From assembly GCF_003334355.1 (NCBI RefSeq), contig NZ_QOWP01000005.1: a DNA stretch of 64,000 nt, one strand, 5' to 3'. The translations under genes were made by a program, and so were the position numbers. A model generated the notes under the pieces. It ran no database searches, was not told the origin of the DNA, and saw only the letters and a list, made by a program, of their open reading frames with translations. This document shows, piece by piece, positions 5,080 to 63,719 of the stretch; the first letter of the stretch is position 1, and each line of letters opens with the position of its first letter. Origin of the DNA: Escherichia coli (GTDB lineage Bacteria; Pseudomonadota; Gammaproteobacteria; Enterobacterales; Enterobacteriaceae).

Positions 5080-6066
5080 TCAGGCGTTGGCGTCTTTGAC
5101 TTCGCGGATGATGTCCTGGTACTCGCGCAATTTCTGCGGAGTCATCATACGGCGCTGATCGTCAAGCACGACACCGCCCACTTCATCGGCAATATGCTGC
5201 GCAGATTGCAGCATCAGCTTGAAGTTCTGCAGCTCGTCACCGTAAGACGGTACCTGCATAAAGATAGTGACACCCGGAGTAGTGAAATCCTTCATTTCAG
5301 GATCAAAGGTTCCCGGTTTCACCATATTCGCCAGGCTGAATAACGCCGGGCCGCTGCCATCCGGGCTAAGATGACGATGGTAAATATTCATATCGCCAAA
5401 AATGAAGCCCGCTTGTTGAATGCTGTTAAGAAGCAGTTCACCGTTTAGCTCGCTACCGTGATGCGCCGCGACGTTCATGATAATCACCGCTTCTTTGCGC
5501 TTCGGTTTATCCATAACTGGAGCCGGTTCCGCTACAGGCTCAGGCTGTGGTGCCGCTACGGGTTCTGCAGGCTGGAAAGCCTGTTGTGCCGGTTGCGGTG
5601 CTGAATGCACAGGCTGCGGCGCTGGCGCGACCTGTGGCGAAACTGGCTGCTGCAACGGCTGTTCAGGCTGCGGCTGATAGGCAGGCTGCTGCACCGGCTG
5701 CGCTGGATGCGGAGCATGTTGCGGCGGTACCTGCGCTTCAGGCGGCTGCTGGACCGGTTGACGCGGCTGCGCAGACGCATAAGGCGGTTGGTACTGGTGT
5801 TGCGGCGACGGACGAGCAGCCTCATGCTCCTGAGCGTTAGCCGGGGCATGATTCACGCGGTGAACACGAACCTCACCAACGCCCTCATCATCTTCGACAT
5901 CCTCGTCATAAGAATCGTCGTCACGTTTTGACTTCATTCGTTTTAATGGCCGATCGCGGAACATAGAAGATCGTTCTTTACGGCTGGTCCAGAAACCATG
6001 TACCAGTAAAGCGATTATGGCGATCGCGCCAACAATGATTAATATCAGACGCAAATCCTGCATCAT
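5080..6066 (-). CDS. zipA: Cell division protein ZipA (FtsZ membrane anchor)
   Basis: Start set at [22 protein letters not shown] (N-terminal TM); long P/Q-rich linker; C-terminal FtsZ-binding domain; 328 aa. Confidence 0.93.
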
Positions 6067-6295
6067 TATATTCTCTGTTGTTCTAACACCTTGCCACCAC
6101 GGCAAACATTTACTCACTAAGAGTATTTGCCGATTACCTCAAGTGCAAGTGCACTATTAACTTTCACAGCACAAAGATAGATGAAATCGTGCTTTTTGCT
6201 GTTTTTTCGAACATATCCTAACTGTCCATTGCGCAATTACCCGGTAAAATACGCAGAATTTTCCCGGGATTGGTCAAAAGGAGCTCATCCTGATT

Positions 6296-7057
6296 ATGGT
6301 TTCATCATTCACATCTGCCCCACGCAGCGGTTTTTACTATTTTGCGCAAGGCTGGAAGCTCGTCTCGCAACCTGGGATTCGGCGTTTCGTTATTTTACCG
6401 CTGCTGGTCAATATTTTGTTGATGGGGGGCGCATTCTGGTGGCTCTTTACGCAACTCGATGTCTGGATCCCGACTCTCATGAGTTATGTTCCGGACTGGT
6501 TACAATGGCTGAGCTATCTGTTGTGGCCCCTGGCTGTCATCTCTGTGCTGTTAGTGTTTGGCTATTTCTTCTCAACGATTGCTAACTGGATTGCCGCTCC
6601 GTTCAACGGTTTATTGGCTGAACAACTGGAAGCACGATTGACTGGCGCTACACCGCCAGATACCGGGATTTTCGGTATCATGAAAGATGTGCCGCGAATC
6701 ATGAAACGCGAATGGCAAAAATTTGCCTGGTATCTGCCACGCGCAATTGTATTGCTAATTCTTTACTTCATCCCTGGTATTGGGCAAACCGTCGCGCCGG
6801 TACTGTGGTTCCTGTTTAGCGCCTGGATGTTAGCCATCCAGTATTGCGATTACCCCTTCGATAACCACAAAGTGCCGTTTAAAGAGATGCGCACCGCCCT
6901 GCGCACACGCAAAATCACCAATATGCAGTTTGGTGCTTTAACCAGCCTGTTTACGATGATCCCGCTGCTTAATCTGTTCATCATGCCCGTTGCCGTTTGT
7001 GGCGCGACGGCGATGTGGGTCGATTGCTATCGCGATAAACACGCGATGTGGCGGTAA
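6296..7057 (+). CDS. cysZ: Sulfate transporter CysZ
   Basis: 253 aa polytopic membrane protein; immediately upstream of cysK. Confidence 0.93.
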
Positions 7058-13504: not shown

Positions 13505-14416
13505 TTAAATCCCCGCCCCCTGGCTAAAGTGCTCTTCCCCAAACACCCCGGTGGAAAGGTAGCGATCGCCACGATCGCAGATGATCGCCACCACCACCGC
13601 ACCAGGGTTAGCTTTTGCCACCCGCAGTGCTCCGGCAACCGCGCCGCCGGAGCTGACGCCACAGAATATTCCTTCCCGCACCGCCAGTTCGCGCATGGTG
13701 TTTTCCGCATCGCGCTGATGAATATCCAGCACCTCATCCACCAGAGAAGCGTTGAAAATCCCCGGCAGATATTCCGCAGGCCAGCGGCGAATGCCGGGAA
13801 TGCTACTGCCCTCTTCCGGCTGCAGGCCAACAATGGTCACCGGTTTGGATTGTTCGCGCATAAAGCGTGAAACGCCGGTGATAGTGCCGGTTGTTCCCAT
13901 GCTGGAGACAAAATGGGTAATGCGCCCGCCAGTTTGCTGCCAGATTTCCGGCCCGGTAGTGGTGTAATGGGCGTAAGGGTTATCGGGATTATTGAACTGA
14001 TCGAGCAGCTTTCCTTCACCACGATTAGCCATCTCCAGCGCCAGATCGCGCGCACCTTCCATGCCCTGCTCTTTGGTGACAAGAATCAGTTCCGCACCAT
14101 AAGCACGCATCGCCGCACGGCGTTCCTGGCTCATGTTGTCGGGCATCAGCAATTTCATGCGATAGCCTTTAAGCGCGGCAATCATTGCCAGCGCAATGCC
14201 GGTGTTACCACTGGTGGCTTCGATTAACACATCACCCGGTTTAATTTCCCCGCGCTTTTCCGCCTCGACGATCATCGAAAGCGCCGCACGATCTTTTACC
14301 GAACCTGCCGGGTTATTGCCTTCCAGTTTTAACCACACTTCACTGCCGTTATTCGGCCCCATTCGCTGCAACTTCACCAGAGGCGTATTGCCTATTGTTT
14401 GTTCTAATGTACTCAC
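13505..14416 (-). CDS. cysM: Cysteine synthase B (O-acetylserine sulfhydrylase B)
   Basis: 303 aa from a GTG start at 14414-14416 (VSTLEQTIGNTPLVKLQR); the longer track ORF extends into the REP-containing spacer and is rejected. Confidence 0.92.
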   Translation of the reverse strand: MSTLEQTIGNTPLVKLQRMGPNNGSEVWLKLEGNNPAGSVKDRAALSMIVEAEKRGEIKPGDVLIEATSGNTGIALAMIAALKGYRMKLLMPDNMSQERRAAMRAYGAELILVTKEQGMEGARDLALEMANRGEGKLLDQFNNPDNPYAHYTTTGPEIWQQTGGRITHFVSSMGTTGTITGVSRFMREQSKPVTIVGLQPEEGSSIPGIRRWPAEYLPGIFNASLVDEVLDIHQRDAENTMRELAVREGIFCGVSSGGAVAGALRVAKANPGAVVVAIICDRGDRYLSTGVFGEEHFSQGAGI

Positions 14417-14440
14417 GATCTCTATCCATACGTGGTGTTG

Positions 14441-14476
14441 CCTGATGCGACGCTTGCGCGTCTTATCAGGCCTACA
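14441..14476. repeat. REP element in cysA-cysM intercistronic spacer
   Basis: gcctgatgcgacgcttgcgcgtcttatcaggcctac palindrome. Confidence 0.8.
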
Positions 14477-14549
14477 GGTTACAAACCTTGCCATTAAAAA
14501 GCCCGGATCGCGGGAAGCGCCTCCGGGCGTTTAACATTCACTCAACCTA

Positions 14550-18518: not shown

Positions 18519-19310
18519 TCAGATACCGACGCTAACCGTCTCCGGCAGTGTGCTGCCGCCATCAATCACATTCTGTGTACCGGTTAAATAGCTGGATTCA
18601 TCCGATGCGAGGAAGGCCGCCAGTTCGCCGACTTCCAGCGGATCGGCGAGGCGACGCATCGGGATTGCTTTCGCCATTTCAGTCAGCACCGACTCTGGAT
18701 CTTCCGGGTTCGACTGGCGGGCAATGCTTTCCGCCATTGGTGTGCGCACGTATCCCGGGCAAATGGCGTTAACGCGAATACCAGACTGCGCGTACTCCAC
18801 CGCCAGCGATTTTGTCAGGCCAACAATCGCCGCTTTCGTTAAGGCGTACGCCGTTTCGCCAGGATCGGCCACCATATCACCAGTGACTGAAGACATCATC
18901 ACAATGCGACCATCTTTGCGGGCAATCATCTCCGGCAGCACCGCCTTCGTGACGTTCCATACGCCTTTAATATTGATATCAATATGGAAATCGCGATCTT
19001 CATCGCTCATATCGAGGAAACTGCCCAGACGACAAACGCCTGCGTTATTCACCAGGATATCAATGCGCCCTTCTTTTTCCTTCGCGCGCTTGATAGCTGC
19101 GGCGACCGACGCCGGGTCACGCACATCGGCGACAACCGCCGTACAGCGATGACCACGACCACACAGTTCGTCCGCCAGCTTTTCGATCTCAGGGGAGATA
19201 TCCAGCAAGATTAGGTTTGCGCCATGACGCGCAAAAGTTCTGGCAATTCCTTCGCCAATTCCCTGCAATGCGCCCGTAATCAGTGCTGTCTTGCCCGTGA
19301 GTTTACCCAT
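18519..19310 (-). CDS. ucpA: Short-chain dehydrogenase/reductase
   Basis: Start at MGKLTGKTALITGALQGIGEGIA (Rossmann TGxxxGxG); 263 aa; longer track ORF rejected. Confidence 0.9.
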   Translation of the reverse strand: MGKLTGKTALITGALQGIGEGIARTFARHGANLILLDISPEIEKLADELCGRGHRCTAVVADVRDPASVAAAIKRAKEKEGRIDILVNNAGVCRLGSFLDMSDEDRDFHIDINIKGVWNVTKAVLPEMIARKDGRIVMMSSVTGDMVADPGETAYALTKAAIVGLTKSLAVEYAQSGIRVNAICPGYVRTPMAESIARQSNPEDPESVLTEMAKAIPMRRLADPLEVGELAAFLASDESSYLTGTQNVIDGGSTLPETVSVGI

Positions 19311-19438
19311 TTTAATGCTCTCCTTGTTAATACAGAGCGTTACACTCCATTCCCTCTGAAAATACAGGATAAACAAAATATTGCTGCGGATCAGCTCACT
19401 AATTCAGGAAAATCTCAATCCAGTCGCTGCTTTATGCA

Positions 19439-20296
19439 TCATTTCAGGCGTTGTGTTAGCTCACTGCTGCGCTGAATCATTTTCAATGACTCCACATCAT
19501 TGAGTTGCACAAGACCAACAAACAGTAAATCGGTAACAGAATTTTGCGCCGTGCGGGTAGACATCGACGAGCTACGCCATTCGGTTTCACCGGAAACGGT
19601 ATCGAGCGTGAAATGCGCCAGCCGCCGCAGCGGAGAGTCAGCCAGAGAAGTAATGGCAATCACCGTTGCCCCCTGCTTTCGTGCCGCTTCTGCGCACAAG
19701 ACAATCTCTTTTTTACTGCCGCTGTAAGAGATAGCGATTTGTACATCGCCTTTTTTCAACGCCTGGGAAACGGTGGCTTGTACGTGCGTGTCGGCTTCGC
19801 AGGCCACGCGATAGCCAATTTTCATCAGTTTGAACGACAGATCGCGCCCCACCAGCGCCGACCCGCCCAGGCCCGTTATCTGGATAAACGGTGCTTTACT
19901 GATGACCTCAATGATTTTTTGCAGCCGCGCGTAGTCGAACAACGCACAGGTTTGCTCCAGCGCCAGCTCTTTTTCGCGATTCAGTTTGCGGGCAATCACT
20001 TCCAGCGAATCATCACTGGTAATCGAACTGTGCAGGTGCAGCGCCGTGGCATTCGTTTTCTCCTGGCTGGCACTGTATTCGCCTATTAACGCCATACGCA
20101 ATTCAGTAAATCCTTGTGCGCCGAGCTTCTGGGCAAACTTCACAATACTCGACTGGCTGATGCCGAGCTGTTTCGCTATCTTGCGCGAAGAGACGGATTT
20201 CAGCTCACTCACGTTGGCCCGCAGAAAGTCAGCAATTGTTTGCTCGTTCCCGGTAAATTCACTTTCCGCATTGCGTATTTTCGTCAGGTACAACAT
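19439..20296 (-). CDS. murR: RpiR-family repressor of MurNAc catabolism
   Basis: 285 aa from [14 protein letters not shown]; N-terminal HTH, C-terminal SIS domain; divergent from murQ. Confidence 0.9.
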
Positions 20297-20459
20297 CTTC
20301 CACTCTCCTGGGCTGGCAGCATAAATTCCGCTTAAGTTCTTATGACGCTCTTCACACTCTGCAAGTGTAGACTCAATGATTCCTTTAAGTCTGTCAATTC
20401 GGGATATATGATTCCATACATCTGCAATTATTTGATCGTAAATAGTAAGGTCACCACCG
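20297..20459. promoter_or_regulatory. murR / murQP divergent control region
   Basis: 163-bp spacer between divergent starts; operator positions not determined. Confidence 0.4.
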
Positions 20460-21356
20460 ATGCAATTTGAAAAGATGATTACTGAAGGCTCGAACACCGC
20501 CTCGGCTGAAATTGACCGCGTATCGACGCTGGAAATGTGCCGGATTATCAACGATGAAGATAAAACCGTACCGCTTGCCGTTGAGCGCGTACTGCCGGAT
20601 ATCGCCGCGGCGATCGATGTTATCCACGCCCAGGTAAGCGGTGGCGGGCGTCTGATTTACCTCGGTGCGGGAACATCCGGTCGTCTGGGGATTCTGGATG
20701 CCAGCGAATGTCCGCCCACCTACGGCGTGAAACCAGGTCTGGTAGTTGGATTAATTGCTGGCGGCGAATATGCCATTAAGCACGCGGTGGAAGGCGCGGA
20801 AGATAGCCGGGAAGGCGGCGTTAACGATCTGAAAAATATTAATTTAACGGCACAGGATGTGGTGGTCGGTATTGCCGCCAGTGGTCGTACGCCGTATGTG
20901 ATTGCCGGACTGGAATACGCGCGCCAGCTCGGTTGCCGTACAGTGGGAATTTCCTGTAATCCGGGGAGCGCCGTTTCAACCACCGCAGAGTTTGCCATTA
21001 CACCGATTGTAGGTGCCGAAGTGGTTACCGGTTCTTCGCGGATGAAAGCAGGTACAGCGCAGAAACTGGTACTCAATATGCTCTCCACCGGGCTGATGAT
21101 TAAATCCGGCAAAGTGTTCGGCAACCTGATGGTCGATGTGGTCGCCACCAACGAAAAACTGCATGTGCGCCAGGTCAATATCGTTAAAAACGCCACCGGA
21201 TGTAATGCCGAACAAGCGGAAGCGGCGTTAATTGCCTGCGAGCGCAACTGTAAAACGGCCATTGTGATGGTGCTGAAAAATCTCGATGCCGCAGAAGCTA
21301 AAAAACGCCTGGATCAACACGGCGGCTTTATTCGTCAGGTTTTAGACAAGGAATAA
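20460..21356 (+). CDS. murQ: N-acetylmuramic acid 6-phosphate etherase
   Basis: 298 aa SIS-domain protein. Confidence 0.95.
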
Positions 21357-21359
21357 CCC

Positions 21360-22784
<1,425 letters not shown>

Positions 22785-22788
22785 TATC

Positions 22789-24093
22789 ATGAAACGGACA
22801 ATGCTCTATCTTTCTCTGCTGGCTGTTAGTTGTAGCGTCAGCGCCGCAAAATACCCTGTTCTGACAGAAAGTTCGCCAGAGAAAGCAGGGTTCAACGTCG
22901 AACGGCTTAACCAGATGGATCGCTGGATTAGCCAGCAAGTTGATGTCGGTTATCCCGGCGTAAACCTGCTGATCATTAAAGATAATCAGATTGTGTATCG
23001 CAAAGCCTGGGGAGCGGCGAAAAAGTACGATGGCAGCGTGTTGATGGAACAGCCTGTCAAAGCCACCACCGGGACGCTGTATGACCTGGCCTCAAACACC
23101 AAAATGTACGCCACGAACTTCGCCCTGCAAAAGCTGATGAGCGAAGGCAAACTGCATCCTGACGATCGGATTGCGAAATATATTCCGGGGTTTGCCGATA
23201 GTCCAAATGACACCATTAAAGGCAAAAACACCCTGCGGATTTCTGACCTGCTGCATCACAGCGGCGGTTTCCCGGCAGATCCGCAATACCCGAATAAAGC
23301 GGTCGCGGGCGCGTTTTATTCCCAGGATAAAGGCCAGACGCTGGAGATGATCAAGCGCACGCCGCTGGAATATCAGCCCGGCAGCAAACATATCTACAGC
23401 GATGTCGATTATATGCTGCTTGGATTTATCGTCGAGTCGGTTACCGGTCAGCCGCTTGACCGCTATGTTGAAGAGTCGATTTATCGCCCGCTCGGCCTGA
23501 CACATACGGTATTTAACCCGCTGCTGAAAGGCTTTAAACCGCAACAAATTGCCGCCACGGAATTGAACGGCAATACCCGCGATGGCGTGATCCATTTCCC
23601 GAATATCCGCACCTCCACTCTCTGGGGTCAGGTGCACGATGAAAAAGCCTTTTATTCGATGGGCGGCGTTTCCGGGCACGCAGGTTTGTTTTCCAATACC
23701 GGCGATATTGCGGTGTTAATGCAAACGATGCTGAACGGCGGGGGCTATGGCGATGTGCAGCTGTTCAGTGCGGAAACGGTGAAGATGTTCACCACCAGCT
23801 CTAAGGAAGATGCCACTTTTGGCCTCGGCTGGCGCGTGAATGGTAATGCCACCATGACGCCGACGTTTGGCACGCTGGCAAGCCCGCAAACCTACGGTCA
23901 CACTGGCTGGACCGGAACGGTGACCGTTATCGATCCGGTCAATCATATGGCGATTGTGATGTTAAGCAACAAGCCCCATTCGCCAGTTGCCGATCCACAA
24001 AAAAATCCCAATATGTTCGAAAGCGGTCAGTTACCAATTGCAACTTATGGTTGGGTAGTTGATCAGGTGTATGCGGCGTTGAAGCAAAAGTAA
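22789..24093 (+). CDS. yfeW: Penicillin-binding protein 4B / beta-lactamase-fold peptidase
   Basis: 434 aa from MKRTMLYLSLLAVSCSVSAA (signal peptide); SxxK motif in LASNTKMYA; track ORF start 22702 overlaps murP and is rejected. Confidence 0.9.
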   Translation: MKRTMLYLSLLAVSCSVSAAKYPVLTESSPEKAGFNVERLNQMDRWISQQVDVGYPGVNLLIIKDNQIVYRKAWGAAKKYDGSVLMEQPVKATTGTLYDLASNTKMYATNFALQKLMSEGKLHPDDRIAKYIPGFADSPNDTIKGKNTLRISDLLHHSGGFPADPQYPNKAVAGAFYSQDKGQTLEMIKRTPLEYQPGSKHIYSDVDYMLLGFIVESVTGQPLDRYVEESIYRPLGLTHTVFNPLLKGFKPQQIAATELNGNTRDGVIHFPNIRTSTLWGQVHDEKAFYSMGGVSGHAGLFSNTGDIAVLMQTMLNGGGYGDVQLFSAETVKMFTTSSKEDATFGLGWRVNGNATMTPTFGTLASPQTYGHTGWTGTVTVIDPVNHMAIVMLSNKPHSPVADPQKNPNMFESGQLPIATYGWVVDQVYAALKQK

Positions 24094-24150: not shown

Positions 24151-25134
<984 letters not shown>

Positions 25135-25927: not shown

Positions 25928-26377
25928 TTATTCTTTTTCTTCATTAAAACAAGCGCGTAAACGTCGATTGGTCAGCAGCCAGATTAACGCCACAATATCC
26001 GCCACTACCAGCGCCAGACCGATACCGCTAACGGATTCACCGTTCAGCCACAGCCACGGTTGCCAGCAAAGTAAAACCACCTGCGCCAACAGCAACAGAA
26101 AATAGAGTACACGCCAGGTGCGAGGAAACGTAGCCCGCCGACCGCTCAACAAAAACGCCAGCACCGCCGGAATGCCAGGAATCAGCCCCAGCCAGAAATT
26201 ATCGTGATCGGGATAAAACAGATTTAGCAGCGCAGTACCCTGCTCGCGCGACGCACCGGCAATGACAAACAGCACCCAGGTTCGCGCCTGAAGCAATAGC
26301 ACAAGCCAGAAGAGCAAGGGTAAACGCAGGCGACCGTGCGCATCATAATGGACAGGATGAAACTCAGTACTCTTCAT
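25928..26377 (-). CDS. yfeZ: Inner-membrane protein YfeZ
   Basis: About 149 aa, hydrophobic; start [15 protein letters not shown] chosen (alternative ATG 6 nt upstream). Confidence 0.8.
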
Positions 26378-26789
26378 CTTCAATCAAACGCTTACCCAGA
26401 CTCAGCACGTCGGCGTGTTCATATCCCAGGCGTTCATACATTCCGAGCACCATGTCGTTATCTTCCGGCACGTTGATCTGAATTTTCGGGCAGCCACGAG
26501 CAATCAGCTTTTTCTCCAGCCGATTAAGCAACGCATTGGCAATCCCACGCCCACGAAACTCTGGATGCACGCCAAGATAATAAGCAGACCCGCGATGCCC
26601 GTCATAACCGCCCATCACCGTTCCGACCACGTCACCGTTTACCTCAGCGACCAAAAACAAACTGACGTCATGGTTCATCTTACGCTCGATGTCCATTTCC
26701 GGATCGTTCCACGGACGCAGCAAGTCGCAACGCTCCCAAAGGGTGATGACCTCTTCGAAATCTTCCTGGCGAAATACGCGTATCTCCAT
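26364..26789 (-). CDS. ypeA: GNAT-family N-acetyltransferase
   Basis: 141 aa from [14 protein letters not shown]; acetyl-CoA binding motif region [10 protein letters not shown]. Confidence 0.9.
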
Positions 26790-27002
26790 GGTATTCGTTA
26801 CCTTTTTGCGGGTTAAAAGGCTGATTATGGCGTGAACGGTCGAATTAGCCAATATCTGACGAAAATCGGTTGAAAAAGTGGCATAATGGGGAGTTGTCAA
26901 CTATTGAAATGAAAAGTAAAACAATTCTCAACAGCAAACCGTCGTAACGGATTACGCGATACGATATAACATCTGGAACTTTATTATTACAACTCAGGCC
27001 GT

Positions 27003-30379: not shown

Positions 30380-30391
30380 CGGCAACCTCCG

Positions 30392-40311: not shown

Positions 40312-40349
40312 TGTGCTTTCCTCTTTATCAGGGTCCAGAACGGGACCGT

Positions 40350-42165: not shown

Positions 42166-42863
42166 AGGGATTGCCAGTTAGCCGGCCAGGCGACATACAG
42201 GAATTTCACGCTGGATGTCGTACCAAATTCGATGCTGGAGCCTTTCGGGATAAACATCACGTCGCCTGCTTTGGCGATCATGGTTTGGCCTTCGTGGCGA
42301 ACATGCAGCTCCCCTTCCAGCACCATGTCGATTTCGTCGTAGTTCAGGGTCCACGGGAAGAATGCGTTCTCCCACTGCATAAAACCGGCGGCCATGCTGC
42401 TGCCGTCGTCTCCGGTCACAAGATCAGTCAAGCCCACGCAATGCGGCTCTGCGCCGTCGAAACGACCAAACTTGACGCTACTGCCATCAATCACTTTGAT
42501 GCCGCCTTTGCCGGTCACCGATTTGAAGCTCGGCTGCATTGCGCCCTGCTCCAGCGACTGTTTTTCCTTCATCACTTTTTCCATCAGCTGTGCGACCAGG
42601 CTTTCGGTAAACTGGCCTTCCGGCAGCTGGGCAATGATGGTTTCGCGGATGCGCTGGCTTTCGGTTTTGTCGGCTGGCACGCTGGCGGGCACGGACGCCG
42701 TTACCGGGATCGATTCATCACATTCGGTGATGGTAAAACCCAGTAGATCCGCCACTTCACGGGCTTCCGGGGTAATAATGCTGGCGCGCAGAACCACGGA
42801 CATTGCCTGTTCGCCGCGCGCGTGTGCTTCACGAATATCATTCGCTGTGATGAGTTTTTTCAC
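42162..42863 (-). CDS. eutQ: Cupin-fold protein EutQ
   Basis: 233 aa. Confidence 0.93.
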   Translation of the reverse strand: MKKLITANDIREAHARGEQAMSVVLRASIITPEAREVADLLGFTITECDESIPVTASVPASVPADKTESQRIRETIIAQLPEGQFTESLVAQLMEKVMKEKQSLEQGAMQPSFKSVTGKGGIKVIDGSSVKFGRFDGAEPHCVGLTDLVTGDDGSSMAAGFMQWENAFFPWTLNYDEIDMVLEGELHVRHEGQTMIAKAGDVMFIPKGSSIEFGTTSSVKFLYVAWPANWQSL

Positions 42864-43329: not shown

Positions 43330-43665
43330 TTAACTTTTGGTCATTTCACAAAGCGTATAATTTAATAAGCGACCTAAACCGCTGACGGTTTGTGATAACG
43401 CTTCTTCTACTGCGCCCACCGAGCCATAAATCACCAATGCACCGCTGAATCGGTCGAGAAAACCGATATGCACATCAGCGGCTTTCAGCGCTAAATCACC
43501 GGCGATCATCGCCGTTTCGCCGGGAGTTAGCGTCATAATGCCAATTGCGCCCGCATCCGGAACGCCGATTTTCTTCGCCAGTTCCTCACCGGGATGCGCG
43601 ATGAGATGCGCCAGTGTGACCTGTTTGCCGGGCACAAATTCCTGAATGATGCGTTCTTTATCCAT
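43330..43665 (-). CDS. eutS: Microcompartment shell protein EutS (permuted BMC)
   Basis: 111 aa from [15 protein letters not shown]; first gene of operon. Confidence 0.9.
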
Positions 43666-43957
43666 GAGTCGCCGCCTGTGAAAAACTTTCGTGTATCGTG
43701 ACAATTTTTCGTCAGAGTAAATAACAAAATTCGGCAAGCGCGTTTAAAAGGTGAGGTAGATCACTAAGAATGGAGAGATATTCGCTGTGGTGCATAAACT
43801 TTCATATGCAACGCATGAATATAAATAAAATAATATCGAGATATTATATAGACTGCTTTTTTTTATTATTCGCAAACTCAGTAATAAGCTTTACTAATAT
43901 ATTGCAGCTAAACTGCTTACCCTGAATATTCAGGGTAAGCGTGAGAGTTAAAAAAAA
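43666..43957 (-). promoter_or_regulatory. eut operon upstream region (expected EutR-dependent promoter) plus maeB 3' region
   Basis: 292-bp AT-rich non-coding segment upstream of eutS; contains perfect palindrome cttaccctgaatattcagggtaag (43916-43939). Confidence 0.45.
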
Positions 43958-46525: not shown

Positions 46526-47476
46526 ATGAACGAGTTAGACGGCATCAAACAGTTCACCACTGTCGTGGCAGACAGCGGCGATATTGAGTCCATTCGCCAT
46601 TATCATCCCCAGGATGCCACCACCAATCCTTCGCTGTTACTCAAAGCTGCCGGATTATCACAATATGAGCATTTAATAGACGATGCTATCGCCTGGGGTA
46701 AAAAAAATGGCAAGACCCAGGAACAACAGGTGGTCGCAGCGTGTGACAAACTGGCGGTCAATTTCGGTGCTGAAATCCTCAAAATCGTACCCGGTCGCGT
46801 GTCAACAGAAGTTGATGCACGCCTCTCTTTTGATAAAGAAAAGAGTATTGAGAAGGCGCGCCATCTGGTGGACTTGTATCAGCAACAAGGCGTTGAGAAA
46901 TCACGCATTCTGATCAAGCTGGCTTCGACCTGGGAAGGAATTCGCGCGGCAGAAGAGCTGGAAAAAGAAGGTATTAACTGCAACCTGACGCTGCTGTTTT
47001 CTTTTGCACAGGCACGGGCCTGTGCGGAAGCAGGCGTTTTTCTGATTTCGCCGTTTGTCGGGCGTATTTATGACTGGTATCAGGCACGCAAGCCGATGGA
47101 CCCGTATGTGGTGGAAGAAGATCCGGGCGTTAAATCGGTGCGCAATATCTACGACTACTATAAGCAACACCACTATGAAACCATTGTGATGGGCGCGAGC
47201 TTCCGTCGCACCGAACAAATCCTCGCCTTAACCGGCTGCGATCGACTGACTATCGCACCGAATTTACTGAAGGAGCTGCAGGAAAAAGTTTCGCCAGTGG
47301 TACGTAAATTAATCCCACCTTCTCAGACGTTCCCACGCCCAGCTCCCATGAGCGAAGCGGAGTTCCGTTGGGAGCACAATCAGGATGCGATGGCGGTAGA
47401 AAAACTGTCTGAAGGCATTCGTCTGTTCGCCGTTGATCAACGCAAACTGGAAGATCTTCTTGCCGCCAAACTATAA
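46526..47476 (+). CDS. talA: Transaldolase A
   Basis: 316 aa. Confidence 0.95.
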
Positions 47477-47495
47477 ACCAGCCACGGAGTGTTAT

Positions 47496-49499
47496 ATGTC
47501 CCGAAAAGACCTTGCCAATGCGATTCGCGCACTCAGTATGGATGCGGTACAAAAAGCCAACTCTGGTCATCCCGGCGCGCCGATGGGCATGGCTGATATT
47601 GCCGAAGTGCTGTGGAACGATTTTCTTAAACATAACCCTACCGACCCAACCTGGTATGATCGCGACCGCTTTATTCTTTCCAACGGTCACGCGTCGATGC
47701 TGCTCTACAGTTTGCTACATCTGACCGGTTACGACCTGCCGCTGGAAGAACTGAAGAACTTCCGTCAGTTGCATTCGAAAACCCCAGGCCACCCGGAGAT
47801 TGGCTATACGCCAGGCGTTGAAACCACCACCGGCCCGCTTGGACAAGGTTTGGCGAACGCCGTCGGGCTGGCGATAGCAGAGCGTACACTGGCGGCGCAG
47901 TTTAACCAGCCAGACCATGAGATCGTCGATCACTTCACCTATGTGTTTATGGGCGACGGCTGCCTGATGGAAGGTATTTCCCACGAAGTCTGTTCGCTGG
48001 CAGGCACGCTGGGACTGGGCAAGCTGATTGGTTTTTACGATCACAACGGTATTTCCATCGACGGTGAAACAGAAGGCTGGTTTACCGACGATACGGCAAA
48101 ACGTTTTGAAGCCTATCACTGGCATGTGATCCATGAAATCGACGGTCACGATCCGCAGGCGGTGAAGGAAGCGATCCTTGAAGCGCAAAGCGTGAAAGAT
48201 AAGCCGTCGCTGATTATCTGCCGTACGGTGATTGGCTTTGGTTCGCCGAATAAAGCAGGTAAGGAAGAGGCGCACGGCGCACCACTGGGGGAAGAAGAAG
48301 TGGCGCTGGCACGGCAAAAACTGGGCTGGCACCATCCGCCATTTGAGATCCCTAAAGAGATTTATCACGCCTGGGATGCCCGTGAAAAAGGCGAAAAAGC
48401 GCAGCAGAGCTGGAATGAGAAGTTTGCCGCCTATAAAAAGGCTCATCCGCAACTGGCAGAAGAGTTTACCCGACGGATGAGCGGTGGTTTACCGAAGGAC
48501 TGGGAGAAAACGACTCAGAAATATATCAATGAGTTACAGGCAAATCCGGCGAAAATCGCTACCCGTAAGGCTTCGCAAAATACGCTTAACGCTTACGGGC
48601 CGATGCTGCCTGAGTTGCTCGGCGGTTCGGCGGATCTGGCTCCCAGCAACCTGACCATCTGGAAAGGTTCTGTTTCGCTGAAGGAAGATCCAGCGGGCAA
48701 CTACATTCACTACGGGGTGCGTGAATTTGGCATGACCGCTATCGCCAACGGCATCGCGCACCACGGCGGCTTTGTGCCGTATACCGCGACGTTCCTGATG
48801 TTTGTTGAATACGCCCGTAACGCCGCGCGGATGGCGGCACTGATGAAAGCGCGGCAGATTATGGTTTATACCCACGACTCAATTGGCCTGGGCGAAGATG
48901 GTCCGACGCACCAGGCTGTTGAGCAACTGGCCAGCCTGCGCTTAACGCCAAATTTCAGCACCTGGCGACCGTGCGATCAGGTGGAAGCGGCGGTGGGCTG
49001 GAAGCTGGCGGTTGAGCGCCACAACGGACCGACGGCACTGATCCTCTCAAGGCAGAATCTGGCCCAGGTGGAACGTACGCCGGATCAGGTTAAAGAGATT
49101 GCTCGTGGCGGTTATGTGCTGAAAGACAGCGGCGGTAAGCCAGATATTATTCTGATTGCCACCGGTTCAGAGATGGAAATTACCCTGCAAGCGGCAGAAA
49201 AATTAGCAGGAGAAGGTCGCAATGTACGCGTAGTTTCCCTGCCCTCGACCGATATTTTCGACGCCCAGGATGAGGAATATCGGGAGTCGGTGTTGCCTTC
49301 TAACGTTGCGGCTCGCGTGGCGGTGGAAGCAGGTATTGCCGATTACTGGTACAAGTATGTTGGTCTGAAAGGGGCAATTGTCGGGATGACGGGTTACGGG
49401 GAATCTGCTCCGGCGGATAAGCTGTTCCCGTTCTTTGGCTTTACCGCCGAGAATATTGTGGCAAAAGCGCATAAGGTGCTGGGAGTGAAAGGTGCCTGA
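47496..49499 (+). CDS. tktB: Transketolase 2
   Basis: 667 aa from [27 protein letters not shown] (ThDP-binding region). Confidence 0.95.
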
Positions 49500-50762: not shown

Positions 50763-51338
50763 TCAGTCCATTAAATGTGACGTTTGCAAATAGTTAAGCA
50801 ATAACACCGTCTTACCGTCACGTATCTCGCCGGTTTTGATCATCTCCAGCGCCTGGCTGAACGGCAGCTCGAGCACTTCAATATCTTCATCTTCGACACC
50901 GCCACCGGCGTTAGCGCGCTGATTGTCACTGTATTCGGCGATAAAAAAGTGGATTAGCTCAGTCACACCGCCTGGCGACATATACAGTTCAAATAATTTG
51001 CGCACTTCACCCACTTCATAGCCCGTCTCTTCAATCGCTTCTTTGCGAATACACACTTCCGGTTCGTCGTTATCCAGCAGCCCGGCGCAGCTTTCAATCA
51101 GCTGCCCGCTTTTATTGCCATTAACCCAGGTAGCGACACGGAACTGACGAATCAGAACCACGGTCTTTTTCTTCGTGTTGTACAGGAGGATCGTCGCACC
51201 ATTGCCGCGATCGTACACTTCACGTTTATGGCGGATAACTTCGCCGTCTTTGCGCGTGAGATCGTAAGTAATGTTGTGCAGGGTGAAATAGTTATCGGAG
51301 AGAATTTTGTCTTTAATGAGGGTGATTTGTTGCGTCAT
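50763..51338 (-). CDS. nudK: GDP-mannose pyrophosphatase (Nudix hydrolase)
   Basis: 191 aa from [18 protein letters not shown]; Nudix box around [21 protein letters not shown]. Confidence 0.9.
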
Positions 51339-51405
51339 ACCGACTCCACAGCGCGAAATGAACAATTATCTTACGCTGTGAAGTCGGGTTTGTCTGCGCA
51401 GGCTA

Positions 51406-53385: not shown

Positions 53386-53590
53386 AACGACCTTCTTTTT
53401 TGGTTGTAAAAACCTTATTCTTTATATGAGTGTTGTTATTACCCGACTTACAGGGGAATCGGCAATGTTCATGTGCCCAGAATAAGTAACTATTTCGCTA
53501 TAAACTGTGGCAGATCAAATAATCCCATCACTGACTAAATTGCGTTTCAGCGAACTGGAACATTAATGATTTTTTGTGGAGAAGACGCGT

Positions 53591-55291
53591 GTGATTGTTA
53601 AACGACCCGTCTCGGCCAGTCTGGCCCGGGCCTTTTTTTACATTGTGCTGCTGTCGATTCTTTCCACGGGTATCGCTCTGCTAACTCTGGCGAGCAGTTT
53701 GCGCGACGCTGAGGCTATCAATATTGCCGGATCGCTGCGTATGCAGAGTTACCGCCTGGGCTACGACTTGCAAAGTGGCAGTCCACAACTCAATGCACAT
53801 CGCCAGTTATTTCAGCAGGCACTGCATTCACCGGTATTAACCAACCTCAACGTCTGGTATGTGCCAGAAGCAGTAAAAACTCGCTATGCGCATCTGAATG
53901 CCAACTGGCTGGAGATGAATAATCGGCTCAGCAAGGGCGATTTGCCGTGGTATCAGGCCAATATTAATAATTATGTTAATCAGATAGACCTGTTCGTACT
54001 GGCTTTACAGCACTACGCTGAACGCAAAATGCTGCTGGTGGTGGCGATTTCCCTGGCTGGCGGCATCGGTATTTTCACGCTGGTCTTTTTTACTTTGCGC
54101 CGCATACGCCATCAGGTGGTTGCCCCGCTGAATCAGCTGGTTACCGCCAGTCAGCGTATTGAACACGGGCAGTTCGACTCGCCGCCGCTGGATACCAACC
54201 TGCCGAATGAGCTTGGTCTGCTTGCAAAAACCTTTAACCAGATGTCGAGCGAGCTGCATAAATTGTACCGTTCGCTGGAAGCGTCAGTAGAAGAAAAGAC
54301 CCGCGATCTCCACGAGGCCAAGCGTCGTCTGGAGGTGTTGTATCAGTGTTCGCAGGCGCTGAACACTAGCCAGATTGATGTGCATTGTTTCCGCCATATT
54401 TTGCAGATTGTTCGCGACAATGAAGCGGCTGAATATCTGGAGTTAAATGTCGGTGAAAACTGGCGGATTAGCGAAGGGCAACCAAACCCGGAATTGCCGA
54501 TGCAGATTTTACCGGTGACAATGCAAGAGACGGTTTACGGCGAACTGCACTGGCAAAATAGTCACGTTTCATCATCAGAACCGCTACTTAACAGCGTTTC
54601 GTCGATGCTGGGACGCGGTTTGTACTTTAATCAGGCGCAGAAGCATTTTCAGCAATTATTGTTGATGGAAGAACGTGCGACCATCGCCCGCGAATTGCAC
54701 GACTCGCTGGCTCAGGTACTTTCTTACTTACGTATCCAGTTGACGTTACTGAAGCGTTCGATACCGGAAGATAACGCCACCGCACAAAGTATCATGGCCG
54801 ATTTTTCCCAGGCGTTGAATGATGCTTATCGGCAGTTACGCGAGCTGTTGACTACTTTCCGCCTGACGCTGCAGCAGGCGGATCTCCCCTCCGCATTGAG
54901 GGAAATGCTGGATACGTTACAAAATCAAACCAGCGCCAAACTGACCCTCGACTGCCGTCTGCCAACCCTGGCACTGGATGCGCAAATGCAGGTGCATTTG
55001 TTGCAAATTATTCGCGAAGCGGTGCTGAATGCGATGAAGCACGCCAACGCCAGCGAAATCGCCGTCAGTTGCGTCACCGCGCCGGACGGCAATCACACGG
55101 TTTATATCCGTGATAACGGGATTGGTATCGGTGAACCGAAAGAACCCGAAGGTCATTATGGTCTGAATATCATGCGCGAACGCGCGGAACGGCTAGGTGG
55201 GACGCTGACTTTTTCACAACCTTCCGGCGGCGGCACGTTAGTGAGTATTAGCTTTCGCTCTGCGGAGGGTGAGGAAAGTCAGTTAATGTAA
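53591..55291 (+). CDS. narQ: Nitrate/nitrite sensor histidine kinase
   Basis: 566 aa from GTG start (VIVKRPVSASLARAFF); two TM segments, HAMP, H-box ELHDSLAQ, ATPase domain. Confidence 0.93.
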   Translation: MIVKRPVSASLARAFFYIVLLSILSTGIALLTLASSLRDAEAINIAGSLRMQSYRLGYDLQSGSPQLNAHRQLFQQALHSPVLTNLNVWYVPEAVKTRYAHLNANWLEMNNRLSKGDLPWYQANINNYVNQIDLFVLALQHYAERKMLLVVAISLAGGIGIFTLVFFTLRRIRHQVVAPLNQLVTASQRIEHGQFDSPPLDTNLPNELGLLAKTFNQMSSELHKLYRSLEASVEEKTRDLHEAKRRLEVLYQCSQALNTSQIDVHCFRHILQIVRDNEAAEYLELNVGENWRISEGQPNPELPMQILPVTMQETVYGELHWQNSHVSSSEPLLNSVSSMLGRGLYFNQAQKHFQQLLLMEERATIARELHDSLAQVLSYLRIQLTLLKRSIPEDNATAQSIMADFSQALNDAYRQLRELLTTFRLTLQQADLPSALREMLDTLQNQTSAKLTLDCRLPTLALDAQMQVHLLQIIREAVLNAMKHANASEIAVSCVTAPDGNHTVYIRDNGIGIGEPKEPEGHYGLNIMRERAERLGGTLTFSQPSGGGTLVSISFRSAEGEESQLM

Positions 55292-60594: not shown

Positions 60595-60621
60595 TGAGTG
60601 GTTCTGCAAGAGGAAATAAGC

Positions 60622-60837: not shown

Positions 60838-60917
60838 GTAGGCCGGATAAGGCGTTAACGCCGCATCCGGCAATGGTGAACGATGCCTGATGCGACGCTC
60901 ACGCGTCTTATCAGGCC
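60838..60917. repeat. REP/BIME pair
   Basis: gtaggccggataaggcgttaacgccgcatccggca and gcctgatgcgacgctcacgcgtcttatcaggcc. Confidence 0.8.
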
Positions 60918-60931: not shown

Positions 60932-61630
60932 TTACATCATTTCAATCACATCATCATCGCCAGGCTTACCGCCACTTAGCGCTTCGTCGAAATAATGTTT
61001 CGGAATGGTATAACGCAAGTGATCCAGGGCAAATTGCATACTGCGATTGTCGATCGCATGGCCTAAATCCTCCACGATATCCAGCGTCACGTCACCACCG
61101 GCACTGATTAACGCTTCCTGCGCCGCAACCGCATGCGCCAGATCGATAACCGGATCTTCACCACCATGAATCAAGTGAATTGTTGTGGCTGTAGACGCGG
61201 TTTCCGGCAGGCTCGCATAGCGTCCGTTAAAGGCAATGACGCGCGAAGCAAGGCCCGGTTCGGCTTTAATGCTCTCCAGCGCCATAATCGCGCCTTGTGA
61301 GAAACCAATTAGCGCCGTGGCATTAGCCCCTACTCCGCTCTGTTTCTGCCAGTAGCGTACCGTCTCAATAAACGTCGGCATGATGGCATCCACACGCGCC
61401 TGGCGATTATCTTCCGTAATACCCTGCACCGAAAACCACTGACGCCCCGCCGGATTACCGCTCGGCTCCGCGCCACCGACACTCACCACCAGCGCATCAG
61501 GAAACAGCGGTGCAAACCAGCTACCTATTTCCCCCATTGCCACCGGGTTATCCCCGACACCGTGGAAAAGCAGTAACAACTGTTGCGCAGGTTTATCCGG
61601 GCTTTGAACAACAAAATGGTCATGTTTCAT
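60932..61630 (-). CDS. ypfH: Esterase / alpha-beta hydrolase
   Basis: 232 aa from MKHDHFVVQSP; GxSxG nucleophile motif GFSQG. Confidence 0.9.
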   Translation of the reverse strand: MKHDHFVVQSPDKPAQQLLLLFHGVGDNPVAMGEIGSWFAPLFPDALVVSVGGAEPSGNPAGRQWFSVQGITEDNRQARVDAIMPTFIETVRYWQKQSGVGANATALIGFSQGAIMALESIKAEPGLASRVIAFNGRYASLPETASTATTIHLIHGGEDPVIDLAHAVAAQEALISAGGDVTLDIVEDLGHAIDNRSMQFALDHLRYTIPKHYFDEALSGGKPGDDDVIEMM

Positions 61631-61703
61631 GGCGAACTCCTTAACTGATGTCATTAATTTTACGCCGCTGACTCACAATGACCATGGGAGAAAATTGAAG
61701 GAG

Positions 61704-63719
61704 TCAGTGAAAAAATTGCCATTGCGTTATGCGATCGCGCAGACGCTCAGTGCGAACCTCATTAAGTGCGAACAGCGCCTGCGCGGCCTCTTCCCGCTGG
61801 CGAACCAGTAACATCTTGCGGCCTGAAAGTTTAAGTGTGGTACATAACTGCGCGTCGCTGACGTTTTTCTGTAAACGCCCACGCAGCGCCGGTAATGCCA
61901 GTTCACTGGTTTGTAGCATACGCAATAAGCAACCTAACGATGTTAATAGCGGACGATGAGCGAAAGCAAAACCGGCCAGTTCAAGCCAGTCGTCGTCAGA
62001 AAGGACGGCATCGTTTAGTGGATCAACAGGAAGCGTTTCGCCATTCCACTTTGCGAGAGCTTGCGCATCGCGACGTAAACGGTAATGCTCACGTTCAGCC
62101 AGTTGTTTACCCGCATTACTCATCGGTAACAGCGCCATCGCCGTATAGCAACCGCTGCTGGCTTCACGATGATTACCCATCCGCACCAGCACAAAACCGC
62201 AGCGGTGCCAGAAACGCCATAACTCCCCGGTGTAACCAAAACTCACCGAAAGATAGTCGAGGTCACGCGTATATTGCAAAGCACCAGCAATAAGTTGCTG
62301 CCCTGTGCCTTCCCGCTGACGCGCCGGATGAACTGCTATCCGGCTGACCCGCCGTCCACGCAATGTCGCTGCCAGTGGATTGCTACCGTGCGCCGCCAGC
62401 GACTGGGCCACCAGATTACCCCGCGGGCGACGAAAACCTGCCCATACCGCCTGACTGAGTTGTTGAGATAATCCCCCCTCATCCACCAGCCACAGCGCTC
62501 CGGCAATCTCGTTTTCGCCAGCCGCCTGTAAAAAATATTGCCCTGGTGCATCCATCATCCGGCGTAAATCCAGCGGCGAAGTCCGGTAGTGCGCACCAGA
62601 CAATAACTGATAAACCTTTAACGGCGTTTCTGGCTCGCTTCGCCATAACGTTTGTTCAAATGCGGAAATGACGATATTGCCTTGTGGTGTATGGGTGAAG
62701 TTTTCATCGTCAAAAACCAGTGCCTCACTAACCATTTTTTCCAGCGGGCATCCCTGTGCCCAGCGGATCGGCTGTTGCAGTTCAAAACGGTGTAAATGCG
62801 GAAAGCGAGCGCAAAATTTCAGCAAAAAACCACGTCCGGTGCCTTCGTAGCCCTGCACCGTAGTGGTTAACAACGTTCGAGGAAAACGCGATACCAGTTG
62901 ATGCAACAACGGCGCAGGTATGGCTGCGGCTTCGTCGACCACCAGCCAGTCGGCTTGCTCATCGCTGGCTAACAAGGCATCCGGCGCAATAAAGCGAAAC
63001 TTCTCGCCCGCAAATTGTGCCAGTACATCCGTTGCCGCTTTTGCGGGCGCGGTGACAATCGCACTGCCCGCAATACGAGAAATGAGTTGCCCTGCCAGCG
63101 CCGACTTACCGCGCCCACGCGCAGCCGTTACCGCTGCCACGCCCGGCGGCATGGTCAGTAGCTGCTGTAAGAGTTGCTGTTGTTCTGGTTGTGGTGCGCC
63201 GGTCGCGGGGTGCCAGTCAGTACGGGGAGTAAAATGCGCCAACGAGAACGGCTGGTTTTGCCGCCAGAGGATAGCGTCGTTATCCGCCGTAAGTACGCGT
63301 TTGAGATGCTGGACAAAATGCGGCGTCGCAATAGGGTCAGGGCAATCACTCCAGCGCAGCGAGTCGGCATCAGGTTGGTTTTCCCACTCTTCCCATACAG
63401 GGAGTAACAAAACCAGCCAGCTTCCCGCTTTCAACGTTCCGCTAAGTGCTGCAAAGGCAGCGGCATCAAAGCCGTGGCGGGCGTCGAATACCGCATGCCG
63501 GAACTCGCGCCCAAGTAAAGTTTGTAGTGCCGAGGGAGAACAGTGGTTTTCAGCATCTGGCTGCGGCGAAATCCACAGCCAGTCGCCAGGTAAGGCATCA
63601 CGTAACTTAAGCGCATGATCAAAACACCAACCCTCTTCCCCGCTCAACACCAGCAAGCGGCGGATCCCTTCACGTTTCATTTGCGCTGTTAATGTGTGAA
63701 GCGCAGTCAGTTCAGCCAT
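61704..63719 (-). CDS. tmcA: tRNA(Met) cytidine acetyltransferase
   Basis: 671 aa; helicase-like P-loop GRGKSALAG plus C-terminal GNAT domain. Confidence 0.93.
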   Translation of the reverse strand: MAELTALHTLTAQMKREGIRRLLVLSGEEGWCFDHALKLRDALPGDWLWISPQPDAENHCSPSALQTLLGREFRHAVFDARHGFDAAAFAALSGTLKAGSWLVLLLPVWEEWENQPDADSLRWSDCPDPIATPHFVQHLKRVLTADNDAILWRQNQPFSLAHFTPRTDWHPATGAPQPEQQQLLQQLLTMPPGVAAVTAARGRGKSALAGQLISRIAGSAIVTAPAKAATDVLAQFAGEKFRFIAPDALLASDEQADWLVVDEAAAIPAPLLHQLVSRFPRTLLTTTVQGYEGTGRGFLLKFCARFPHLHRFELQQPIRWAQGCPLEKMVSEALVFDDENFTHTPQGNIVISAFEQTLWRSEPETPLKVYQLLSGAHYRTSPLDLRRMMDAPGQYFLQAAGENEIAGALWLVDEGGLSQQLSQAVWAGFRRPRGNLVAQSLAAHGSNPLAATLRGRRVSRIAVHPARQREGTGQQLIAGALQYTRDLDYLSVSFGYTGELWRFWHRCGFVLVRMGNHREASSGCYTAMALLPMSNAGKQLAEREHYRLRRDAQALAKWNGETLPVDPLNDAVLSDDDWLELAGFAFAHRPLLTSLGCLLRMLQTSELALPALRGRLQKNVSDAQLCTTLKLSGRKMLLVRQREEAAQALFALNEVRTERLRDRITQWQFFH

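Follow-up and report, generated by a model that had tools for sequence, protein, structure and literature searches.

Gene calling that takes the longest open reading frame (ORF) has long been known to place the starts of prokaryotic genes too far upstream, and start-site predictors, as well as the manual re-curation of the Escherichia coli MG1655 annotation, set out to correct this over-prediction. The related question of which in-frame start codons are actually used in E. coli has been taken up by proteoform studies that combine Ribo-RET with N-terminomics, and these report real secondary starts (TRAINSPOTTER; PMC13245402). Here, we address the same question, drawing on the same datasets, for a 64,000-nucleotide (nt) stretch of an E. 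coli chromosome (contig NZ_QOWP01000005.1; hereafter "the window"). What we find is the same in kind as the known artefact, in that about a third of the genes are affected, the extensions have chance-like lengths, and they spill into neighboring genes. We conclude that the longest ORFs over-extend by chance and that ribosomes almost certainly initiate at the starts curated for K-12, four of which are GTG codons.

The window and the longest-ORF rule

The window is an ordinary E. coli chromosomal segment that runs from yfeR to tmcA, with the gene order yfeR-yfeH-ypeB-ligA-zipA-cysZK-ptsHI-crr-pdxK-yfeKS-cysMAWUP-ucpA-murRQP-yfeW-yfeXYZ-ypeA-amiA-hemF, followed by eutRKLCBAHGJENMDTQPS-maeB-talA-tktB-ypfG-nudK-aegA-narQ-acrD-ypfM-yffB-dapE-ypfN-ypfH-tmcA. 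By megablast, positions 5000-25000 are 100% identical to E. coli E41, OW1E2, and PSS-12, and positions 39001-64000 are 100% identical to PSS-12. The window differs from K-12 because eutB and eutA are adjacent, the CPZ-55 prophage being absent, and it differs from E41 in having no IS1 between maeB and eutS. We mapped the 60 MG1655 coding sequences (CDS) of the region onto the window (96-100% identity, gene by gene) and walked in frame from each K-12 start upstream to the preceding stop. The earliest start-type codon (ATG, GTG, or TTG) following that stop was then taken, which is the longest-ORF rule.

Longest ORFs over-extend 18 of 60 genes

By this rule, the start lies too far upstream in ~30% of the genes of the window (18/60), by 2-85 codons relative to MG1655. 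An initial annotation of the window, made from the sequence and an ORF list, had named 14 such genes (zipA, ucpA, murR, yfeW, yfeX, ypeA, eutK, eutG, eutM, eutS, tktB, nudK, ypfN, and ypfH). The mechanical ORF list reproduced the long ORFs that it described, and all 14 proved to be over-extended, again by 2-85 codons, when measured against the mapped K-12 starts. It had left out cysM (26 codons), narQ (5 codons), yfeZ (2 codons), and ypeB (33 codons). The 18 extensions are as follows.

zipA: ORF 5080..6117, 345 amino acids, GTG; extension 6067..6117, minus strand, 17 codons; curated ATG at 6066
cysM: ORF 13505..14494, 329 amino acids, ATG; extension 14417..14494, minus strand, 26 codons
ucpA: ORF 18519..19376, 285 amino acids, TTG; extension 19311..19376, minus strand, 22 codons
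murR: ORF 19439..20551, 370 amino acids, TTG; extension 20297..20551, minus strand, 85 codons
yfeW (pbp4B): ORF 22702..24093, 463 amino acids, ATG within murP; extension 22702..22788, plus strand, 29 codons
yfeX: ORF 24151..25077, 308 amino acids, GTG; extension 25051..25077, minus strand, 9 codons
yfeZ: extension 26378..26383, minus strand, 2 codons, TTG, within the ypeA CDS
ypeA: ORF 26364..26900, 178 amino acids, TTG; extension 26790..26900, minus strand, 37 codons
eutK: ORF 29879..30385, 168 amino acids, TTG; extension 30380..30385, minus strand, 2 codons
eutG: ORF 36185..37399, 404 amino acids, GTG within eutJ; extension 37373..37399, minus strand, 9 codons
eutM: ORF 40018..40353, 111 amino acids, ATG; extension 40312..40353, minus strand, 14 codons
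eutS: ORF 43330..43737, 135 amino acids, TTG; extension 43666..43737, minus strand, 24 codons
tktB: ORF 47433..49499, 688 amino acids, TTG within talA; extension 47433..47495, plus strand, 21 codons
nudK: ORF 50763..51365, 200 amino acids, TTG; extension 51339..51365, minus strand, 9 codons
narQ: ORF 53576..55291, 571 amino acids, GTG; extension 53576..53590, plus strand, 5 codons
ypfN: extension 60598..60621, plus strand, 8 codons, GTG
ypfH: ORF 60932..61654, 240 amino acids, ATG; extension 61631..61654, minus strand, 8 codons
ypeB: extension 2993..3091, minus strand, 33 codons, TTG within ligA; outside the range covered by the initial annotation

When the 600 nt upstream of each gene were shuffled, 30.8 ± 3.8 of the 60 genes were expected to be over-extended, compared with the 18 observed, so that over-extension is less frequent here than chance would have it and, in this respect, the window differs from the known artefact. 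The median extension is 15.5 codons, versus 16 in the shuffles. Both the frequency and the length of the extensions are compatible with the chance occurrence of start-type codons, and the deficit relative to the shuffles is probably due to packed operons, which put stops just upstream of many starts.

The initial annotation had also stated that some extensions run into the neighboring gene or into a repetitive extragenic palindromic (REP) element. The first part holds: the extensions of murR (into murQ, on the opposite strand), yfeW (murP), eutG (eutJ), eutM (eutD, by 4 nt), tktB (talA), yfeZ (ypeA), and ypeB (ligA) all enter a neighboring CDS. The second part holds for cysM alone, which had been listed there merely for its GTG start.

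Although our knowledge of E. coli is unchanged by these findings, they have practical value. A raw longest-ORF track gives wrong N-termini for ~30% of the genes here, which would hide signal peptides or membrane anchors (ZipA, PBP4B, NarQ) and invent overlaps (murR/murQ, yfeW/murP, tktB/talA), and a rule that accepts ATG only would miss the four real GTG starts.

The cysM extension reads through a REP element

The only extension that passes through a REP element is that of cysM.

14440..14475, no strand assigned: REP element in the cysA-cysM spacer, with exact matches to the core motif GCCTGATGCGACGC and the tail motif CGTCTTATCAGGCCTAC

REP elements were found by Hamming scans of core motifs; the Rfam scan of the window did not itself call the copy at 14440. 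The motif GCCTGATGCGACGC, with the overlapping GCGTCTTATCAGGC, occurs again at 60885-60916, inside an Rfam naRNA4 match (60841-60917). The peptide encoded by the cysM extension begins MARFVTCRPDKTRKRRIRQ and contains an Arg/Lys-rich stretch, CRPDKTRKRRIRQ, that is encoded by the REP element. In this regard, cysM resembles other cases in which spurious ORFs read through REP elements. The element is missing from the cysA-cysM spacer of other genera, and of the 8 non-E. coli loci, 7 either lack the extension or have it interrupted. The spacer in Salmonella, Klebsiella, Citrobacter, and Enterobacter is unrelated (nucleotide identity to the window extension of 0.26-0.38), and most of these loci carry a stop 4-13 codons upstream of the cysM GTG.

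The other REP clusters of the window (13368-13401, 25872-25905, 36000-36182, 49522-49576, and 60838-60916) differ in that they sit between convergent genes or at 3′ ends, where they lengthen no ORF. Four copies are found between eutH and eutG (36000-36182) and two between ypfN and ypfH (60838-60917), and Rfam scores both of these clusters as naRNA4 (RF02564).

Annotation, Shine-Dalgarno sequences, and protein profiles favor the curated starts

The view of the initial annotation that the over-extension is an annotation caveat and not biology is supported by existing annotation, Shine-Dalgarno (SD) sequences, protein profiles, published peptides, and conservation. On DNA identical to the window, the NCBI Prokaryotic Genome Annotation Pipeline (PGAP) places the starts exactly where they are in K-12, both in E41 (window 5000-25000) and in PSS-12 (39001-64000). 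Ten of the 18 over-extended genes have a RefSeq protein version of 2 or higher in MG1655, versus 2 of the 42 others, which is consistent with earlier revisions of their starts.

In 12 genes (ucpA, murR, yfeX, eutK, eutG, eutM, eutS, tktB, nudK, narQ, ypfN, and ypfH), the predicted energy of pairing with the anti-SD sequence is clearly lower at the curated start, where it ranges from -5.8 to -10.3 kcal/mol, compared with +2.6 to -5.3 kcal/mol at the start of the longest ORF. Examples, with the curated start given first, are ucpA (-8.5 vs. +0.6), murR (-7.8 vs. -2.4), narQ (-6.4 at the curated GTG vs. -3.3), and ypfH (-8.7 vs. -2.2); at the curated ATG of yfeX, eutK, eutG, and tktB the values are -10.3, -10.2, -10.0, and -6.4, respectively.

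We also scanned the extended translations against NCBIfam profiles. Position 1 of the profile coincides exactly with the curated Met in 10 genes, and falls at the following residue of the extended ORF: ucpA, residue 23 (NF006080); yfeW, 30 (NF002968); eutK, 3 (NF012010); eutG, 10 (NF011998); eutM, 15 (NF012018); eutS, 25 (NF012012); nudK, 10 (NF011585); ypfN, 9 (NF010185); ypfH, 9 (NF008525); and murR, where positions 1-285 of NF012026 align with residues 86-370. For narQ, position 2 of NF008184 lies at residue 7. The boundary is 2-4 residues off the curated start in zipA (TIGR02205, from residue 21), cysM, yfeX, and tktB (TIGR00232, from residue 25).

The murR extension is one of the harder cases. 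It starts within murQ on the opposite strand, upstream of the operators, and crosses the murR-murQ intergenic control region, which holds the MurR operators that control murQP and murR itself (PMC9177960). SD pairing and the profile boundary each point to the curated start of murR without ambiguity.

Published N-terminal peptides

The TRAINSPOTTER study lists, in its Table S1, N-terminal peptides at the curated starts of cysM, ucpA, yfeX, eutM, and eutQ, with INRI-seq support given for all five genes and Ribo-RET support for cysM, ucpA, and yfeX (PMC13245402). The cysM peptides (MSTLEQTIGNTPLVKLQR, and MSTLEQ.../STLEQ...) start from the GTG, where both Ribo-RET and INRI-seq place initiation. 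The ucpA peptide (GKLTGK...) begins at residue 2, yfeX is represented by MSQVQ.../SQVQ..., the eutM peptide starts at the curated Met1, and the eutQ peptide (MKKLITANDIR) starts from a GTG. Among the rows of Table S1 retrieved for this region, there is no extended N-terminus for any gene, and we likewise found no experimental N-terminus at the start of a longest ORF, which is the observation that the initial annotation had named as contrary to its reading. With no extended form among these rows, the region differs from the genes for which real secondary starts are reported there. The retrieved rows include none for zipA, narQ, yfeW, or ypfH. In the supplements of the INRI-seq (PMC9825163) and TetRP (PMC4909307) studies, zipA, narQ, tktB, nudK, and ypfH, together with murR or yfeW, were looked for and do not occur.

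The same table lists a peptide for murQ that indicates alternative initiation at Met6 (window 20475-20477) in K-12, a truncation of five amino acids; there is no murQ Met1 peptide among the retrieved rows (PMC13245402).

The extensions are not conserved as protein in other genera

We used other genera for comparison because E. coli genomes differ by at most ~2.7% in this region; a comparison within E. coli was dropped, given that even the most divergent complete genomes are still ~97.3% identical here. Loci were anchored with the exact HPr sequence, which gave E. coli-like and Salmonella-like loci, and with 90%-identity clusters of MaeB, DapE, HemF, and AmiA, which gave loci from Salmonella, Klebsiella, Citrobacter, Enterobacter, and E. 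marmotae. No murR orthologue was present outside E. coli among the fetched loci, and the conservation counts leave murR out.

The curated start codon is kept, as the same codon type, in 100% of the loci from other genera. In contrast to this, a window-type extension is intact in none of the loci for ucpA, yfeW, eutG, eutM, eutS, tktB, narQ, ypfN, and ypfH; a single locus retains it for each of cysM, yfeX, nudK, eutK, and ypeB. For ypeA it is found in 2 of 5 loci and for yfeZ, where it lies within the ypeA CDS, in 3 of 5. The extension is broken in 3/3 loci for both ucpA and eutS, and is intact in 0/7 for eutG, 0/4 for tktB, and 1/5 for yfeX. Stops are found 5 codons upstream of eutM (3/3 loci) and ypfN (2/2 loci), and they interrupt the ypeB extension in 2 of 3 Salmonella-like loci and that of ypeA in Citrobacter, Klebsiella, and Enterobacter. 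In the Salmonella orthologue of yfeW, a stop 12 codons upstream closes the frame and no start precedes the curated one, C. koseri has no start upstream of ypfH, and the upstream GTG of narQ is missing in 5/5 loci. By comparison, the curated ATG is conserved in 4/4 loci for eutK and in 5/5 for nudK and for yfeZ, whose upstream TTG is present in 3/5. Amino acid identity is 0.07-0.62 in the extensions (0.80 in the two-codon case of yfeZ) versus 0.48-1.00 in the first 30 residues; for nudK the value in the extension is 0.33, and for ypeA it is 0.50, compared with 0.98 in the CDS. Judged by these stops, by lost starts, and by the lack of third-position bias, the extensions show no protein-coding conservation, with ypeA and yfeZ as partial exceptions.

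Gene content differs among these genera (at L016 3093-4391, L020 175-1473, and L025 6135-7031 of the fetched loci). The Salmonella homologue of yfeW (PBP4B) lies between aegA and nudK and not beside murP; E. marmotae has murQ between ucpA and yfeX and is missing murR, murP, and yfeW; and one Enterobacter locus (L019) is missing the whole eut operon, with maeB adjoining hemF.

Four genes start with GTG

The initial annotation had correctly assigned GTG starts to cysM (at 14416) and narQ (at 53591), both of which are the K-12 starts, but its count of two genes was too low, as eutA and eutQ also have GTG at the curated start (4/60 genes, ~7%). Across the E. coli genome as a whole, GTG starts are somewhat more frequent than this.

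14414..14416, minus strand: cysM GTG, in the K-12 annotation, kept in 8 of 8 other-genus loci
53591..53593, plus strand: narQ GTG, in the K-12 and PGAP annotations, kept in 5 of 5 loci
34743..34745, minus strand: eutA GTG, in the K-12 annotation, kept in 7 of 7 loci, with no in-frame start upstream
42861..42863, minus strand: eutQ GTG, in the K-12 annotation, kept in 3 of 3 loci

In each case, the GTG aligns with the first residue of the family and is retained in orthologues, and the NCBIfam boundaries agree. As in other GUG-initiated E. coli genes, where this near-cognate codon is read as fMet, the cysM and eutQ peptides in the retrieved rows begin with Met although the codon is GTG (PMC13245402).

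A conserved leader upstream of zipA

The zipA gene is the second of the harder cases. E. coli and Salmonella-like loci share, with 100% identity, the 71 nt that precede its ATG as well as the first 116 nt of the gene.

5951..6137, minus strand: conserved promoter-proximal zipA leader, with the zipA extension inside it, and codons 1-38, a 187-nt exact match to the Salmonella-like locus L007

Because leader and 5′ end of the gene are identical, Salmonella cannot decide where zipA starts. We therefore scanned species-representative genomes with the back-translated sequence of MMQDLRLIL, leaving synonymous sites free, and obtained at least 120 loci from Enterobacterales; the N-terminus is universal among the matches listed, to which the counts that follow also refer. 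A start-type codon at the -17 position, where the window has GTG, is present in only 43 of 114 loci, and 37 keep only a TTG at -13. In a further 21 of the 114, the majority of them from Photorhabdus, Xenorhabdus, Rahnella, Dickeya, Brenneria, and Hafnia, the frame is closed by a stop 5-20 codons before the ATG, and any upstream start is lacking. Across the 13 upstream codons, variation is highest at the first codon position and lowest at the third (0.139/0.079/0.044), compared with 0.097/0.002/0.294 in codons 11-38, which is the pattern of coding sequence. Since upstream starts are missing in 21 loci and variation is not concentrated at third positions, we conclude from these alignments that the zipA extension is noncoding, with the ATG-ATG pair as the start.

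The conservation of this region nonetheless goes beyond the start codon. Codons 1-10 of zipA are almost free of synonymous change in the 116 sequences listed: CGT is kept in 116/116, TTG in 115/116, the rare codon ATA in 115/116, and the rare codon TTA in 114/116. In an alignment of 106 distinct sequences, near-invariant blocks are found upstream of the gene, in the order ACTTGCACTTG, a variable 10-12 nt, GGCAAATAC(T/A)(C/G)TTAG, TGCC-N5-GGCA, and GAACAACAGAGA. The first and third of these contain a -35-like TTGCAC and a -10-like TAnnnT separated by a 17-nt spacer, and may constitute a promoter, in which case the 5′ end of the zipA mRNA would fall ~50 nt upstream of the ATG, near the GTG at 6117. 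A strict sigma-70 scan found no promoter in 6000-6300, and the putative promoter rests on the cross-species conservation of a weak -35/-10 pair and not on consensus strength. One study places zipA in the MazF regulon and reports that the mRNA is cut 12 nt upstream of the AUG (PMC5001579); this position falls in the conserved AACAACAG motif, and GAACAACAGAGA contains the ACA sites.

A candidate hairpin, GAUGCA-GGAUU-UGCGUC, would cover the second zipA AUG. Its six pairs never vary, and because they are invariant, covariation neither supports nor rejects it. For the structure as a whole, the covariation score (0.038) is no different from the mean of the shuffles, RNAalifold gives a covariation term of -0.45, the z-score of the single-sequence fold is -1.84, and there is no Rfam match. 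As covariation and folding energy give no support, we do not claim an RNA structure in the leader.

The conservation of the zipA leader is a real signal with an unexplained cause, and we do not present it as an established element. Tentatively, the noncoding "extension" might lie within an undescribed cis-regulatory module of zipA, an essential cell-division gene, comprising the promoter-like TTGCAC-17 nt-TAnnnT, the inverted repeat TGCC-N5-GGCA, GAACAACAGAGA, and the first ten codons. On this reading, the conservation points to zipA being controlled in its transcription or its translation, whether by a protein, by a small RNA, or by mRNA structure at the start codon. We found no description of mRNA or promoter control of zipA in the literature searched, and a putative promoter, leader, and first ten codons that are frozen at the nucleotide level across an order are the sole item of possible research value in this analysis.

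Alternative explanations

The mechanism that we favor is a simple one: the mechanical rule picks up a chance upstream start-type codon in 18 of 60 genes, such codons sit in 5′ untranslated leaders, in spacers, in a REP element, or in the end of a neighboring gene in another frame, initiation takes place at the curated K-12 codons, and the extra N-terminal residues are not made, or are made in trace amounts at most. For genes outside the published peptide set, we infer that the upstream codons are not translated.

Several observations weigh against this. For thirteen of the 18 over-extended genes (zipA, murR, yfeW, ypeA, yfeZ, eutK, eutG, eutS, tktB, nudK, narQ, ypfN, and ypfH), no direct peptide was found, nor was one found for the GTG-initiated eutA. 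SD sequences are weak at both candidate starts of zipA, cysM, ypeA, yfeZ, and ypeB, and thus uninformative, and in yfeW it is the upstream ATG that has the better SD (-5.4, vs. -3.0 at the curated start). The alignment to the YpeA profile, NF002959, begins 5-6 residues before the curated Met, and no stop closes the ypeA extension in Salmonella or in E. marmotae (with an ATG at -37). Throughout Enterobacteriaceae, both the GTG at -17 and the TTG at -13 of zipA are conserved. Finally, PGAP and the PRK-derived NCBIfam models, which were built partly from enterobacterial annotations, are not fully independent of the K-12 annotation. As regards ypeA, there is no start codon in the window at the upstream boundary of NF002959, which has 147 positions compared with the 141 amino acids of curated YpeA (window 26790-26804) and appears to derive in part from over-extended sequences.

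Of the alternatives, the one that survives best, while still improbable, is that a few curated starts are themselves too far upstream, with the real start at ATG2 of zipA (6063), Met5 of yfeW (22801), or Met6 of eutM (40296). In-frame ATGs do lie 1-5 codons downstream, both zipA ATGs are invariant in the 116 sequences listed, so that conservation cannot choose between them, and murQ provides an example in which the Met6-initiated N-terminus is the only one among the TRAINSPOTTER rows retrieved. However, the eutM peptide in those rows begins at the curated Met1, the NCBIfam profiles begin at the curated Met of both yfeW and eutM, and the MKRT... of YfeW would supply the positive charge that the n-region of a signal peptide is expected to carry.

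It is less probable, and in our view quite unlikely, that some of the upstream codons are genuine secondary starts that give rise to minor extended proteoforms beside the main protein. The candidates would be the ATG of yfeW at 22702, the TTG codons of ypeA at 26852 and 26900, the TTG of zipA at 6105, and the upstream codons of nudK and yfeX. Alternative starts are common in E. coli, and TRAINSPOTTER provides many, murQ Met6 included; moreover, the SD of the yfeW ATG, the reach of NF002959, and the open ypeA extension in Salmonella and E. marmotae noted above would all fit such starts, as would the TTG of zipA at -13, which is conserved in most of the Enterobacteriaceae, Erwiniaceae, and Yersiniaceae loci among the matches listed. 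Against this stand the lack of any extended N-terminus for genes of the region among the TRAINSPOTTER rows retrieved and the lack of coding-type conservation in the extensions. The yfeW extension is missing in Salmonella, where the gene sits elsewhere, and the zipA TTG lies within the TGCC-N5-GGCA inverted repeat, of which it is a part, so that its conservation requires no coding role.

The idea that strain-specific mutations lengthened genes relative to K-12 can be dismissed as virtually excluded, for although the window is not K-12, is without CPZ-55, is 96-100% identical to it per gene, and has an eutT that differs by a 1-nt deletion (269 vs. 267 amino acids), the window has every curated start codon unaltered, PGAP gives K-12 lengths on identical DNA, and the upstream start codons of zipA, cysM, and ucpA are found at the same offset in other E. 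coli-like loci.

Other features of the window

The deletion in eutT lies near codon 265 (3′ end of the gene, 41356-41372) and changes the C-terminus from ...RLGETQ* in K-12 to ...RLGERNDY* in the window, which lengthens the overlap with eutD; PGAP accepts the same allele in PSS-12 as intact (WP_087899199.1).

Identity to K-12 is mosaic, with blocks of 100% (cysK to yfeS, cysA, and amiA to eutH) and blocks of 96-97% (cysM, cysWUP, and murRQP), which suggests recombination tracts. The K-12 spacers between cysP and ucpA and between yfeW and yfeX are ~150-180 nt longer than their counterparts in the window, whereas the yfeY-yfeZ spacer is ~146 nt shorter in K-12, because of the REP element that the window has there (25872-25905). 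The window begins with tRNA genes at 1-72 and 80-152 and an RtT RNA at 186-311. The K-12 gene yfeN had no match in the window when the MG1655 CDS were mapped, and two loci with the same layout as the window (L006 and L014) have gltX directly upstream of yfeR and are missing the xap genes and yfeN.

At positions 33299-33428, the window matches Salmonella (L024) and Klebsiella variicola (L023) exactly over 124-130 nt, which far exceeds the local background. This run takes in ~87 nt at the end of eutA, the 11-nt spacer, and 32 nt at the beginning of eutB, and is the place where CPZ-55 is inserted in K-12; it could be a prophage attachment site or reflect translational coupling or an RNA element. 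The pts operon also has exact matches to Salmonella, of 264 nt (10423-10686, at the ptsI-crr junction), 114 nt (8542-8655, at the start of ptsH), and 119 nt (9076-9194, in ptsI). In genes that are very highly expressed and strongly biased in codon usage, such runs are expected, although the one at the junction is notably long.

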